A stretch of DNA of 52,659 nt, taken from Candidatus Chisholmbacteria bacterium RIFCSPLOWO2_01_FULL_49_14. Its GTDB lineage: Bacteria > Patescibacteriota > Microgenomatia > UBA1400 > Chisholmbacteraceae. Where the stretch lies: positions 45,501-98,159 of the forward strand of contig MHCL01000026.1 in NCBI GenBank assembly GCA_001816915.1, read 5' to 3'. Each line of letters opens with the position of its first letter. Position 1 is the first letter of the stretch. The position numbers and the translations under genes are program-made. The notes beneath the pieces are model-generated. The model had not been told where the DNA came from and made no database searches. It worked only from the letters and a program-made list of their open reading frames with translations. Shown here piece after piece: positions 11,286 through 20,990 of the stretch.

Positions 11286-13625
11286 TTATGCAGATCTGTC
11301 AGGCCATGGGGAAGAAATCAGGAGATCTGGATGTAATTCCTTTCTCTTCTTTTTCGGGTTCGCCTCCTGAAGCTGCTGGTAGGCAGCCTCGGTGATAAAC
11401 GGAACAAAGGGATGCATGAGTTTCAGAAAAACAATAAGACCCTGAAGCAAAGCATTATTGCTGATCTCCTGCTTTTTGTTCCGTTCGATGCATTCATCAC
11501 AGAACCAATGCCAAAACTCGTTATAGACGGTTTCAGCAGCCAATCCGATCCGAAAATGATCAAGCTGATTTGTGACGGTATCAACCACCTTCGATAACTG
11601 TTGAAAGAATCGATCATCCGCTTTTGATATCTGAGAATGTGAAGTTCCATTGGGTTTCGTGCTTCGTGCTTCGTGCTTCGTGCTTTCCCGTTTCATGAGA
11701 ATGAAACGGGCAGCATTCCATATTTTATTCGTCAGATTCCTCATTGCGCGAACGTCACCCTCACCGACACTTTTATCTTGCCCGGCTGTCGAACGGATGA
11801 CCAGTGCCATCCGCAAAGCATCCGCTCCGTAAATTGAAGTGACGTCAAGGGGATTGATGATGTTTCCCAAACTCTTGCTCATCTTCCGTCCTTGCTCATC
11901 GCGAATGAGTCCATGCAGATAGACGGTGCGGAAGGGAACAGAGCCGGTCCGATAGAGCCCCATCATGAGCATCCGCATGACCCAAAAGATCAAGATGTCG
12001 TAAGCGGTTTCCATGACGTCTGTTGGGTAAAATCGCTGAAAGTCATCCTGTTTCTCCCGTGTGCTTTCGGTTTTTCCTGCTGTCTTCCCGCGTGACGCTT
12101 GAAGCGTCACCGCCGGCCATTGAGCTGAAGAAAACCAAGTATCGAAAGTATCGGTTTCCTGAAGGTAGTGATCTCCGGGAGGTGTAGGGGAGACAATGTA
12201 ATCAGCGTCAACGGGAGCTCGCAACGACTGTAGCCCGCCCTTGATTTCCGTAAGCGTGTAATCATTCAAGAGTGTTCCGACCTCGCCAGTCACGAGATTT
12301 TTCTTTCGGTTCAAAAAAGAAACGAAGATGTTATTATTTTGACTTTTGACTTTTGACTTTTGACTTTGAATCTTGTACCACACCGGCATTCGGATACCCC
12401 AAACGATCTGGCGGCTGACATTCCAATCTTTGAGATTCTCAAGCCAATGTTTGAGCGTCTTCCCGTACCCGGCGCCGAAGACGGTAACCTGTTTTTGTTG
12501 AAGAGACTGCAGAGTTTTCTGAACTAATGGTTCAACCTTGATAAAAAATTGCGGCAGAGGCAACGGCTCAATCGGAGTCCTGCACCGGTAGCACACACCG
12601 AGGATATGTCGGTACTGTTCGTCCACCTTAGTCAGGAGTCCTTGAGCTTGAAGATCACGGACCACAATCTCTCTTCCTTTCTTGACCGGCAAACCTGCAT
12701 ACTTCCCGGCAGGCGTACTGAGTTTTCCGTCAAAGCCGATGACTTGCTTTGGCCCCGGTATCTCATCGCGGTGCCGCAGCCAGACTTCAAAGTCATTGGG
12801 GTCGTGTGCCGGAGTGATTTTGACCACACCGGTTCCGAATTCCGGATCCACATAGTCGTCGGCGATCACGCGCATCCTAAATTGACCCAGCAACCCTTTG
12901 ACTTCGACTTCTTTTCCGATCCACTGCTTGTAGCGCGGGTCTTTTGGATTGACAGCCACCGCCGTATCTCCGAACTTGGTCTCCGGCCGCACAGTCGCCA
13001 GGGTAAACGGACCATACTTCATATAGTAGAGCGGGGTGATTTGTTCAACATGCTTCACCTCAAGATCGGAAAATGCCGTACCGCAATGGGTGCAAAAGTT
13101 GACGAGCCTTAGATCCCGATACACCAAACCATCGCGATGCAGTTGAAAGAACGTATCAAGAACCATCCGGACCACATTCTCATCAAGCGTGAAGGTGAAC
13201 CTGGACCAGTCTGCGCTTGCGCCCAGTTTCTTCATTTGCTCAGTCGCCACACCCTTGTTTTCTTGGACGTAATCCCAAATCATCCGGAAGAGGCTTTCCC
13301 TGTCATAGTCCATCCGGCTTTTTCCCTGTTTCTTGAGTTTCTTTTCAAACACAAATTGAGTTTCGATTCCGGCATGATCGGCTCCGGGAAGCCAGAGGCA
13401 AGCCCGGCCGCGCATGCGCTGGTAGCGAATGAGAATGTCCTCAACGGTCACAAACATCGCGTGTCCGATATGCAGGGGATCATTGGCATTTGGGGGAGGC
13501 ATGATGATGCAGTACGGCTTGGCGCCTTTTTTTTGAGAAGGAGCAAACGCGCCGCTTTGTTCCCAAAGCGCGTAAATGCGTTCCTCGTGATCGCTATGCG
13601 TGTAGCGTTTTTCCATATGTCTCAT
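11286..13625 (-). CDS. valS: Valine--tRNA ligase
   Basis: 779 aa. HIGH-type motif PPPNANDPLHIGHA, KMSKS motif KMSKSLGN, DTFDTWFSS, and editing-domain TGVVKITPAHDPNDFE. Confidence 0.95.
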   Translation of the reverse strand: MRHMEKRYTHSDHEERIYALWEQSGAFAPSQKKGAKPYCIIMPPPNANDPLHIGHAMFVTVEDILIRYQRMRGRACLWLPGADHAGIETQFVFEKKLKKQGKSRMDYDRESLFRMIWDYVQENKGVATEQMKKLGASADWSRFTFTLDENVVRMVLDTFFQLHRDGLVYRDLRLVNFCTHCGTAFSDLEVKHVEQITPLYYMKYGPFTLATVRPETKFGDTAVAVNPKDPRYKQWIGKEVEVKGLLGQFRMRVIADDYVDPEFGTGVVKITPAHDPNDFEVWLRHRDEIPGPKQVIGFDGKLSTPAGKYAGLPVKKGREIVVRDLQAQGLLTKVDEQYRHILGVCYRCRTPIEPLPLPQFFIKVEPLVQKTLQSLQQKQVTVFGAGYGKTLKHWLENLKDWNVSRQIVWGIRMPVWYKIQSQKSKVKSQNNNIFVSFLNRKKNLVTGEVGTLLNDYTLTEIKGGLQSLRAPVDADYIVSPTPPGDHYLQETDTFDTWFSSAQWPAVTLQASRGKTAGKTESTREKQDDFQRFYPTDVMETAYDILIFWVMRMLMMGLYRTGSVPFRTVYLHGLIRDEQGRKMSKSLGNIINPLDVTSIYGADALRMALVIRSTAGQDKSVGEGDVRAMRNLTNKIWNAARFILMKRESTKHEARSTKPNGTSHSQISKADDRFFQQLSKVVDTVTNQLDHFRIGLAAETVYNEFWHWFCDECIERNKKQEISNNALLQGLIVFLKLMHPFVPFITEAAYQQLQEANPKKKRKELHPDLLISSPWPDRSA
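11657..11684. repeat. Perfect tandem heptamer (TCGTGCT x4 on +; AGCACGA x4 on the coding strand) inside valS
   Basis: Read directly from the sequence. Translated in frame as STKHEARSTK within the C-terminal region of ValRS. Confidence 0.9.
12337..12375. repeat. Tandem heptamer (TTTTGAC x4 then TTTGAATCTTG on +; GTCAAAA on the coding strand) inside valS
   Basis: Read directly from the sequence. Translated as KIQSQKSKVKSQNNN just after the conserved PVWY segment. Confidence 0.9.
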
Positions 13626-13677: not shown

Positions 13678-14808
13678 TTATTCCGCTATCGTCAGTCCGG
13701 GATCAATAGCCACTCTTGTCCATGGAGTAGGGGAGAATCGGTAGAAAGCCGAAGCCGCAACGGATGCGGCGTTATCTGTACACAGCTCAACGGGTGGAAT
13801 AAAGAGGGCAATTTCGAATTTCAAATTTCGCCTGCCCGCTTGCCCGACCTTTGGCGTGGCCCCTTTGGAGGGAATTTCAAATTTTAACCGTTGGCGTAGC
13901 CTGCGGTTAGCAGCCACACCTCCGGCAACCAAGACCGATTTCGGTCGATACTCATTGATCGCCCGAGCAAGCTTTGTAATAAGAACCTCACAGATTGCTT
14001 CCTGCGCCTCTTGAGCAATAGCCCGAACCAATTGACCGGAAGGCTTTCGACCGCTCAATTGTCGCATGACAGCCGATTTTAACCCACTGAATGAGTAATC
14101 ATATTCCTCACTATCCATCATCGGCCTCGGTAAAGAAATTTTGAATTTTGAATTTTGAATTTTGAATTTCTCCGCCTCAGCGGCAATGGCCGGTCCGCCG
14201 GGATAAGCCAAACCCAGCATCCGCGCGATTTTATCAAACGCTTCACCCGCGGCGTCATCTCGGGTGCTTCCCAGCCGTTCGATATCCTCGTGAGAATGCA
14301 TCAGCACCAGATCGGTGTGCCCTCCCGAAACAACCAGCCCGAGCGCCGGAAACTCAGGTATCTTTGTATTTGTATTTTGAGATTTAAGATTTCGAAATTG
14401 TTTCGAATTTCGTGCTTCGGATTTCGATTTTACGCCGACCCAATTGGCGTACAGGTGTGCAACCAGGTGATTGACGGCAAGCAGGGGTTTTCCCCAAGCC
14501 AAGGCAAGTACCCTGGCGGTTTCAACCCCGACCAGCAGACTTCCGGACAAACCCGGGCCGGCGGTCACGGCGATGGCGTCGATATCTTGGAGTCGTATTT
14601 TGTGCAGCGCTTCGGACAGAACAGGAAGGAGCAGCTCAATTTGCTTGCGAGCCGCTACCTCGGGGACAATGCCGCCGGTATTTTGGTGGAATTCCTGGGA
14701 ACTGGCAACGGCTTGAGAAAGAACGATAACCTTCCGATCAATTGCCGTTCCTTCTACCACAGCCGCAGCTGTTTCATCACACGACGTTTCAATTCCTAGT
14801 ATTTTCAT
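13678..14808 (-). CDS. tsaD: tRNA N6-adenosine threonylcarbamoyltransferase TsaD (Kae1/Qri7 family), carrying three repeat-derived insertions
   Basis: Matches are MKILGIETSCDETAAAVV, GPGLSGSLLVGV, LGLVVSGGHTDL, DDAAGEAFDKIARMLGL, VAGGVAANRRLR and CTDNAA. Confidence 0.9.
   Translation of the reverse strand: MKILGIETSCDETAAAVVEGTAIDRKVIVLSQAVASSQEFHQNTGGIVPEVAARKQIELLLPVLSEALHKIRLQDIDAIAVTAGPGLSGSLLVGVETARVLALAWGKPLLAVNHLVAHLYANWVGVKSKSEARNSKQFRNLKSQNTNTKIPEFPALGLVVSGGHTDLVLMHSHEDIERLGSTRDDAAGEAFDKIARMLGLAYPGGPAIAAEAEKFKIQNSKFKISLPRPMMDSEEYDYSFSGLKSAVMRQLSGRKPSGQLVRAIAQEAQEAICEVLITKLARAINEYRPKSVLVAGGVAANRRLRQRLKFEIPSKGATPKVGQAGRRNLKFEIALFIPPVELCTDNAASVAASAFYRFSPTPWTRVAIDPGLTIAE
13809..13887. 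repeat. Composite repeat inside tsaD: 13-bp direct repeats GAATTTCAAATTT (13816-13828, 13872-13884) flanking a 43-nt GC-rich core
   Basis: The direct repeats are perfect and 56 nt (8 x 7) apart. The core holds CCTTTGG twice, 14 nt apart. Translated as LKFEIPSKGATPKVGQAGRRNLKFEI. Confidence 0.85.
14135..14170. repeat. Tandem heptamer GAATTTT (3 perfect + 2 variant units) inside tsaD
   Basis: Reads gaaatttt gaatttt gaatttt gaatttt gaatttc. The coding strand AAAATTC is translated as KFKIQNSKFKIS. Confidence 0.9.
14362..14432. repeat. Degenerate heptad-phased AT-rich block (about 10 units) inside tsaD
   Basis: Reads tttgtat|ttgtatt|ttgagat|ttaagat|ttcgaaa|ttgtttc|gaatttc|gtgcttc|ggatttc|gatttta. 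Translated as KSKSEARNSKQFRNLKSQNTNTK ahead of the conserved LGLVVSGGHT. Confidence 0.75.
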
Positions 14809-20843: not shown

Positions 20844-20974
20844 AAATTCGAATCACGAAATCCGAAGCACGAAACAAATCCAATTTACCAAAACCCAAAA
20901 TATAAAACAGTTTTGATCATTTGATATTTGAATTTAGAGATTGTTTCGAATTTAGAGATTAGGATTTCGAATTT
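20844..20974. repeat. 131-nt inverted double array of heptad units, centred at 20909
   Basis: Left arm: aaattcg|aatcacg|aaatccg|aagcacg|aaacaaa|tccaatt|taccaaa|acccaaa|atataaa. The right arm is the T-rich mirror, ending cgaattt. The termini (9 nt), an internal cgaaacaa block and the centre aaaac-a-gtttt are complementary. Confidence 0.7.
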
Positions 20975-20990
20975 ACCCTGAAAGGGTTCT

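Follow-up and report, generated by a model that had tools for sequence, protein, structure and literature searches.

Heptanucleotide repeats within the tsaD gene of a Chisholmbacteria genome and their setting in a genome-wide excess of period-7 tracts

The tsaD gene and its heptad sites

The stretch of DNA analysed here, called the window throughout, spans 52,659 nucleotides of the genome of Candidatus Chisholmbacteria bacterium RIFCSPLOWO2_01_FULL_49_14 (C26:45501-98159, with the contig number first). This groundwater bacterium belongs to the Patescibacteria, or candidate phyla radiation (CPR), and its 1.21-Mb genome is assembled in 29 contigs and 90% complete. On the minus strand of the window lies tsaD, which codes for the tRNA t6A37 threonylcarbamoyltransferase subunit and is an essential tRNA-modification gene. 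Within its open reading frame (ORF) the 7-nt unit AAAATTC is repeated in perfect tandem, and two further sites of the same ORF carry heptads of other composition, which at one of them flank a GC-rich cassette. The features concerned are the following:

13678-14808, minus strand: tsaD, a 376-aa ORF with Pfam domain PF00814 and a match to PDB 6nak
14137-14169, minus strand: the tract (site 2), (AAAATTC)x4.7 in the sense direction, encoding KFKIQNSKFKI, TsaD residues 214-224
14362-14431, minus strand: site 1, a composite heptad array (AAAATCG AAATCCG AAGCACG AAATTCG AAACAAT ...) encoding KSKSEARNSKQFRNLKSQNTNTK
13873-13885, minus strand: site 3, upstream heptads, AAAATTTGAAATT, encoding KFEI
13831-13872, minus strand: site 3, heptad-flanked 42-nt GC-rich in-frame cassette, PSKGATPKVGQAGR
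13810-13830, minus strand: site 3, downstream heptads CGAAATT TGAAATT CGAAATT, encoding RNLKFEI

The identity of the ORF rests on Pfam PF00814 and on the many homologues that are named TsaD by their sources. It also matches a solved structure, TsaD of Thermotoga maritima (6nak, E=3e-64). The closest named relatives come from metagenome-assembled genomes of Patescibacteria and of Candidatus Woesebacteria.

Tandem Repeats Finder (TRF) describes the tract at site 2 as 33 nt of period 7, with 4.7 copies and 100% match, which places it above the at least three copies that define a tandem heptamer. On the plus strand, three perfect GAATTTT units (14143-14163) are preceded by GAAATTTT (14135-14142) and followed by GAATTTC (14164-14170), in agreement with an earlier note on this DNA that had counted three perfect and two variant units. 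In the sense direction the codons read GAG AAA TTC AAA ATT CAA AAT TCA AAA TTC AAA ATT TCT TTA CCG AGG CCG, and the encoded peptide is E-KFKIQNSKFKIS-LPRP. The note was thus right to place the minus-strand translation just before LPRP, inside tsaD, and its remark that this region is short in canonical TsaD is borne out by T. maritima 6nak, which has KKG----DPEKYSFPRP, four residues fewer.

An assembly artefact can be dismissed, since the tract recurs in an independent ENA assembly (L010, one of the relatives, which carry L numbers) and in near-identical cluster alleles. Its peptide is identical in five full-length alleles of the near-identical cluster (ENA, JGI, NCBI, SRC), a sixth having a cassette inside it, and 96% of the words of the locus are present in four metagenome runs. 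In the AlphaFold model of TsaD, whose mean per-residue confidence (pLDDT) is 69, residues 218-222 have a pLDDT <50 and form a coil after helix 205-213; coil with pLDDT <50 is found precisely where the ORF has heptads or cassettes, at residues 129-149, 218-222 and 316-327. The loop that holds the tract, modelled with low confidence, is permissive and probably disordered.

Two special roles of the nucleic acid were considered and rejected. By inspection, the end of the tract (AAA ATT TCT) places no X_XXY_YYZ heptamer in the zero frame, which speaks against a programmed -1 frameshift site. A DNA or RNA structure is equally unsupported, the minimum free energy (MFE) of the tract being 0 kcal/mol, weaker than that of every shuffle, with no palindrome present.

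Period-7 tracts and stop codons across the genome

The whole genome contains 284 period-7 tracts by TRF, built from 136 different units, against 36 tracts at period 6 and 42 at period 8. If only perfect repeats of at least three copies are counted, period 7 accounts for 31 (14 coding, 17 not), whereas periods 5, 6 and 8-12 yield 0-1 each and locally shuffled sequence none; the generating process must accordingly be peculiar to period 7. Periods 6, 9 and 12 would leave the frame intact and are nevertheless missing from this count. A search of the 90%-complete genome for MutS (PF00488) and MutL (PF01119) detected neither. This is context only, since the absence of the two proteins is compatible with slippage but cannot explain why period 7 is singled out.

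For the statistics on location, genes were called by a longest-ORF heuristic in its corrected version (88.8% coding). The 228 period-7 tracts of at least three copies lie inside ORFs in 69 cases, at ORF edges in 35 and in intergenic DNA in 124. Their density amounts to 6.4 per 100 kb of coding versus 91.6 per 100 kb of intergenic sequence and is thus 14-fold lower in coding DNA. All ten tract-bearing ORFs submitted to Pfam proved to be housekeeping genes, namely uppS, glutamate dehydrogenase (gdh), miaA, lgt, argS, mnmA, an ABC ATPase, glyA, recR and a 5'-3' exonuclease gene. Judged by eye, further hosts are leuS-, ATP-dependent DNA ligase-, ribonucleotide reductase-, fmt- and nadD-like. Within the window, valS carries two perfect tracts:

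11656-11685, minus strand: (GCACGAA)x4.3, encoding STKHEARSTK
12337-12367, minus strand: (GTCAAAA)x4.4, encoding QSQKSKVKSQN, the unit being stop-free in one orientation only

Three or more heptads read in one frame sample all three phases of the unit, an argument of the earlier note that is logically correct, as is its example: AAAATTC is stop-free and its complement GAATTTT gives GAA TTT TGA. The note had gone on to claim that only stop-free orientations persist in ORFs. As a statistical statement this holds, because the stop status of the unit predicts where a tract lies (chi-square 61.8, p=1.2e-12, over the 284 tracts; Fisher odds ratio 18, p=3e-14):

Unit stop-free both ways: 46 tracts in ORFs, 5 at ORF edges, 14 intergenic
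Unit stop-free one way: 38 in ORFs, 19 at ORF edges, 55 intergenic
Unit with stops both ways: 14 in ORFs, 16 at ORF edges, 77 intergenic

As an absolute statement it fails. The note had proposed a catalogue in which coding copies should be exclusively stop-free. This is what is seen for the perfect coding tracts, 14/14 of which are stop-free in sense (6/14 in that orientation only), but not for the wider set, where 16/59 tracts in ORFs of at least 150 aa have a stop in the sense-orientation consensus unit. All 11 stop-unit coding tracts that were examined (those free of indels) carry a substitution at the codon that would otherwise be an in-frame stop, and in three of them this codon is the sole departure from a perfect repeat. 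The changes include TAA>CAA in two GT39-like paralogues, TGA>TCA in two large paralogues, TGA>CGA in argS and TAA>TCA in the ABC ATPase; stop-patched tracts are found at C3:26044-26074, C3:21351-21379, C14:6921-6950, C16:9962-9991, C9:8135-8165 and C17:21180-21207. The rule needs a "patched stop" amendment. Moreover, for an intact ORF it is a logical necessity, close to a tautology, rather than an inference about "survival", and it adds little, the same orientation argument having already been published for TAACTGA repeats (PMC4679880).

AAATTCG, a unit that is stop-free both ways, is found in both orientations within genes confirmed by Pfam. It is read in the A-rich sense in uppS, lgt, tsaD and the 5'-3' exonuclease gene, and in the T-rich sense in miaA (SFEFRISNFEF) and argS (YFEFRISDFGF). 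Two other points of the earlier note can be retained. Insert lengths do come in multiples of 3, the indels between tsaD alleles measuring 21, 42 or 12 nt, and an intergenic array does combine both orientations:

20844-20975, no strand: intergenic composite heptad array, an A-rich arm (AAATTCG AATCACG AAATCCG AAGCACG) followed by a T-rich arm, with stop codons (TGA and TAG in the T-rich arm)

Turnover of tracts and cassettes in relatives

In a DNA alignment of tsaD, three relatives stand at 89-93% nt identity to the window (L008, L009 and L010). The tract is unchanged in L010, which instead differs at site 1, where it has a GAGCATA-type heptad array (GAGCATA GAGCAAA GAGCATA AAGCATA) that is 12 nt shorter. 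In L008 (91% nt identity) the tract is replaced at equal length by an unrelated AAGAAT-type sequence, the segment being RMEHQEIRIKDH, and extra substitutions flanking the replacement suggest that a patch of sequence was imported. In L009 the tract is split by a 42-nt GC-rich cassette identical to the one at site 3 of the window (13831-13872).

The 42-nt cassette consists of two nested 21-nt cassettes, the outer one (CCCTCCAAAGGG followed by GCGGGCAGG) being interrupted by the inner one (GCCACGCCAAAGGTCGGGCAA). At site 3 there is no cassette in L008 and only the outer 21 nt (PSKGAGR) in L053 and L054. The latter two alleles differ very little from the window, and each carries a 21-nt cassette elsewhere. 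L053:1501-2631 (99.5% nt identity) has CCCTCCAATTCGGCGGGCAGG (LQFGGQA) within the tract, after AAATT, at a point that aligns to window 14150-14156; the peptide reads KFKIQNS-LQFGGQA-KFKIS, and the unit after the cassette is CGAAATT versus CAAAATT in the window. L054:253-1383 (99.6% identity) has the 21-nt perfect hairpin ACCAAGTCAAACTTGGTCAAG in its site-1 array, aligned to window ~14397. The 21-nt cassettes are located at AAATT^CGAAATT junctions, at sites that differ among 99.5%-identical alleles, and the allele length stays at 376 aa because most full-length alleles carry exactly two cassettes, at varying sites.

A hairpin shared by all 21-nt cassettes was considered but is supported for only one out of four: ACCAAGTCAAACTTGGTCAAG forms a 7-bp stem with z=-4.2, while the CCCTCC...GGCAGG cassettes, with z about 0, fold no better than shuffles. 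In this genome the 42-nt cassette is a low-copy element. The search for it returned one related copy on C10 (by BLAST) and one near-identical 21-nt copy on C16 (by pattern), the latter located between heptads in the 5'-3' exonuclease gene. C10 also has an open frame of at least 861 aa (C10:89803-92385, minus strand) with several heptad-coded segments and a nested cassette (LQFG-RANGRAG-GQA); by eye, this frame has a helix-turn-helix or transposase-like N-terminus and a glycosyltransferase-like C-terminus.

Within the order to which the bacterium belongs, (AAARTTC)3 is present in 9/41 genomes (8/40 without this one), and a reversed-pattern control gives 0. In uppS, leuS and the DNA ligase gene, some of the matches seem to occupy positions that carry such tracts in this genome too. 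The tracts of (AAARTTC)>=3 that were fetched from relatives are in open frames and in sense orientation in 12/12 cases, and none is intergenic among these 12 and the 3 of this genome. The surroundings of tsaD in 29 other genomes, 111 kb in all, contain eight period-7 repeats and none at periods 5, 6 or 8-12.

The TsaD loop itself, delimited as YPGGP...PRP, is an insertion hot spot across families of the order. It has 28 residues in six genomes, this one included, and period-7 DNA is found at the site in several relatives from three families. At the same position L024, whose TsaD is 67% identical at the aa level, has a perfect (AAAGTTC)x5 array, L025 an alternation of AAATTCA and AAATTAA, and L027, L028 and L041 decayed heptads; in L026 the loop has the same length, an unrelated sequence and no evident periodicity. 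More distant genomes of the order have unrelated loops of 24-59 residues, while L005 and T. maritima have a short GDPE-type loop. Perfect arrays that differ by one base in each unit, in lineages whose TsaD proteins are only 67% identical, imply recent homogenisation or re-expansion in each lineage. Since relatives with other heptads, or with none evident, have loops of equal length, the tract did not arise by mere insertion of a family copy.

In other families of the order the same loop also varies in other ways. L032 (tsaD of G008) has a perfect hairpin with a 12-bp stem (GGACTGTCCTTG...CAAGGACAGTCC), and L029 (G049) and L039 (G019) have related GC-rich inserts, LRQSG...AQDD and LRRPG...AQDD, respectively.

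Origin of the tract and comparison with known repeats

Taken together, we consider it likely that the tract is an in-frame heptanucleotide microsatellite in a permissive loop of TsaD, created by a period-7 process at the DNA level and then subjected to selection. That the process acts on DNA follows from the period-7 identity, which holds in every reading phase and which selection on the peptide could not produce. Such a process, specific to period 7, would create and re-homogenise arrays throughout the genomes of the order; its likeliest form would be replication slippage or recombination between heptad units, in line with the polymerase-slippage idea put forward for bacterial heptamers. Selection then removes the arrays that bring an in-frame stop or a frameshift. 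ORFs retain units without stops when read in sense, stop-containing units whose would-be in-frame stop codon has been substituted, and net length changes in multiples of 3, mostly 21. The K/F/I/Q/N/S peptide would be a passenger loop sequence and not a selected motif. The tract is also a target at which in-frame mini-cassettes of 21 nt land.

Several points weigh against this explanation. The replacement of whole tracts in close relatives (site 2 in L008, site 1 in L010) goes beyond what slippage alone can do, and stretches of 19-36 nt that the site-1 array has in common with intergenic loci point to dispersal or ectopic conversion rather than to a purely in-situ origin. Both observations imply that recombination or ectopic conversion also contributes. 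Neither L010 nor the six full-length near-identical cluster alleles show a copy-number variant of the tract (±7 or ±21 nt), the sixth allele differing only by its cassette, so that ongoing slippage can only be postulated. The proposed process leaves the choice of period 7 unexplained. Finally, the gene calling is crude, and validation by Pfam is limited to 10 hosts and tsaD.

The shared stretches come from composite arrays. The succession AAATCCG-AAGCACG-AAATTCG-AAACAAT recurs at two coding and two intergenic loci (window 14362-14431; C8:13602-13665; C8:19671-19696; window 20856-20874). Between the site-1 array of tsaD and an intergenic array on C8 the shared stretch measures 36 nt (94% identity), and two other loci have 19-26 nt in common with site 1, which suggests dispersal or ectopic conversion. 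One might therefore regard the coding tracts in general as mobile or ectopically converting heptad arrays, akin to miniature inverted-repeat transposable elements (MITEs) or small dispersed repeats (SDRs), or moved by gene conversion, that arrive in either orientation and are filtered by selection, as the earlier note envisaged. The wholesale replacement at the same site by arrays of unrelated units and the small cassettes at differing heptad tracts in nearly identical alleles would also fit. As an account of the tract we nonetheless find this unlikely. The many different units are unlike a single element, units at the same site differ by single bases in loops of identical length (AAAATTC, AAAGTTC, AAATTAA), and neither terminal repeats nor target duplications are discernible. 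Random insertion should also leave many copies between genes, yet intergenic (AAARTTC)>=3 amounts to 0/15; given that heptads are so much denser in intergenic DNA, insertion in random orientation followed by filtering is disfavoured for AAARTTC.

It is very unlikely that KFKIQNSKFKI is a functional motif of the protein, such as a basic amphipathic loop contacting tRNA or TsaB/TsaE, with the DNA periodicity a secondary matter. Similar peptides do recur in many enzymes, and those relatives of the three families that keep period-7 DNA at the site keep with it an equal-length segment rich in K/F/Q/N/S. However, amino-acid selection cannot generate perfect 7-nt periodicity over three phases, and the segment is unrelated in L008, in L026 and in distant relatives, lacking in L005 and T. 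maritima, modelled as coil of low pLDDT, and tolerant of a 7-aa cassette in its middle.

A phase-variation (contingency) locus that would switch tsaD on and off through changes in 7-nt copy number can be dismissed as hardly credible, for although the unit is not a multiple of 3 and lies inside an ORF of a genome in which MutS and MutL were not detected, the tract is not a contingency locus, every recovered full-length allele being in frame with the tract length unchanged and no frameshifted copy seen, and the hosts being core housekeeping genes (tsaD, valS, argS, leuS, uppS, glyA, miaA, mnmA, recR) rather than surface or variable ones.

As a microsatellite formed at the DNA level, the tract is a member of the bacterial heptameric simple-sequence repeats: it is tandem, and both the period-7 excess and the depletion in coding DNA are observed. 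Heptameric long simple-sequence repeats (LSSRs) were described in bacteria by Mrazek, Guo & Shah 2007, as summarised in PMC4679880 and PMC4692102, with GGGAATC in Xanthomonas and GGGGA(T/C)T in Nostoc as examples given in these summaries. According to these summaries, the hypothesis put forward for the excess of heptamers is polymerase slippage, tied to how long a piece of DNA the active site holds. So far as these accounts go, the likeness extends to the genome-wide 7-nt excess, the many arrays of 3-6 copies, their mostly intergenic location and their under-representation in coding DNA; the difference is that the LSSRs have one dominant motif, whereas here the 136 units are mostly A/T-rich. 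A second difference lies in the approximately 70 in-frame tracts in ORFs of this genome, including Pfam-confirmed core genes and some sites apparently shared across the order. A literature search on simple sequence repeats and the candidate phyla radiation found no report of heptamer repeats in Patescibacteria/CPR.

TAACTGA direct repeats, known from marine Beggiatoaceae and cyanobacteria (MacGregor 2015, PMC4679880), are likewise tandem heptamer arrays to which the same argument on stop codons and orientation applies. The forward repeats contain stops in three frames and are restricted to ORF ends, while the reverse ones are translatable and occasionally found inside ORFs (PMC4679880). They differ from the present tracts in having a single unit, in lying mostly just upstream of start codons and in their suggested translational-regulatory role (PMC4679880). 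Their coding copies sit at protein termini, in contrast to the many units in internal loops of conserved enzymes seen here.

The cassettes bring other elements to mind. Heptanucleotide repeats called STRR were reportedly described by Mazel and co-workers in 1990, and SDRs nested in tandem heptamers of Nostocaceae are said to have been reported by Elhai and co-workers in 2008 (Genome Res 18:1484). SDRs are said to be insertions of 21-27 nt in a heptamer context, to nest in each other and to differ between close strains. The present 21-nt cassettes would resemble them in lying within heptad tracts, in being nested and in changing position between 99.5%-identical alleles. They differ in phylum, units and cassette sequences and in being in frame (21 = 3 x 7) in essential genes, and the hairpin of SDRs has a counterpart in one cassette only. 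Rickettsia palindromic elements (RPEs), palindromic sequences of ~100-150 nt inserted in frame in protein-coding genes, are a further case of repetitive DNA tolerated as extra peptide in loops of conserved proteins. Their size and palindromic nature set them apart from tandem 7-nt arrays and from a tract that has no palindrome (MFE 0).

What is new is the CPR lineage, the many units and the frequency of in-frame tracts in core enzymes, some of them apparently shared across the order. Dozens of perfect 7-nt microsatellites inside core genes of a minimal-genome CPR bacterium are an unexpected setting for such repeats; some tracts recur at apparently the same loops across the order while their units turn over, and they are also targets of 21-nt cassettes. 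This makes them a tractable natural system for asking why 7 nt is the favoured slippage unit in bacteria, what amount of low-complexity insertion essential enzymes can bear, and how very small insertions originate without an obvious transposase. For annotation it means that heptad tracts are neither frameshift nor assembly errors. A bolder and more doubtful idea, which we put forward tentatively, is that CPR bacteria of the Microgenomates type possess an active system that writes and homogenises period-7 repeats and that, together with 21-nt (3 x 7) cassettes that land in heptad tracts, continually rewrites the surface loops of essential proteins while preserving the frame. If true, the repeats would be more than mutational debris, since this rewriting system would supply the lineage with its own source of diversity in protein loops.

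Among the other period-7 arrays of the genome are perfect tandem arrays of the Shine-Dalgarno-like unit AAGGAGT, up to 84 nt long (C17:27756-27803, C9:4076-4159 and C3:23324-23352). One of them adjoins the start of leuS, and these arrays may represent multiple tandem ribosome-binding sites.

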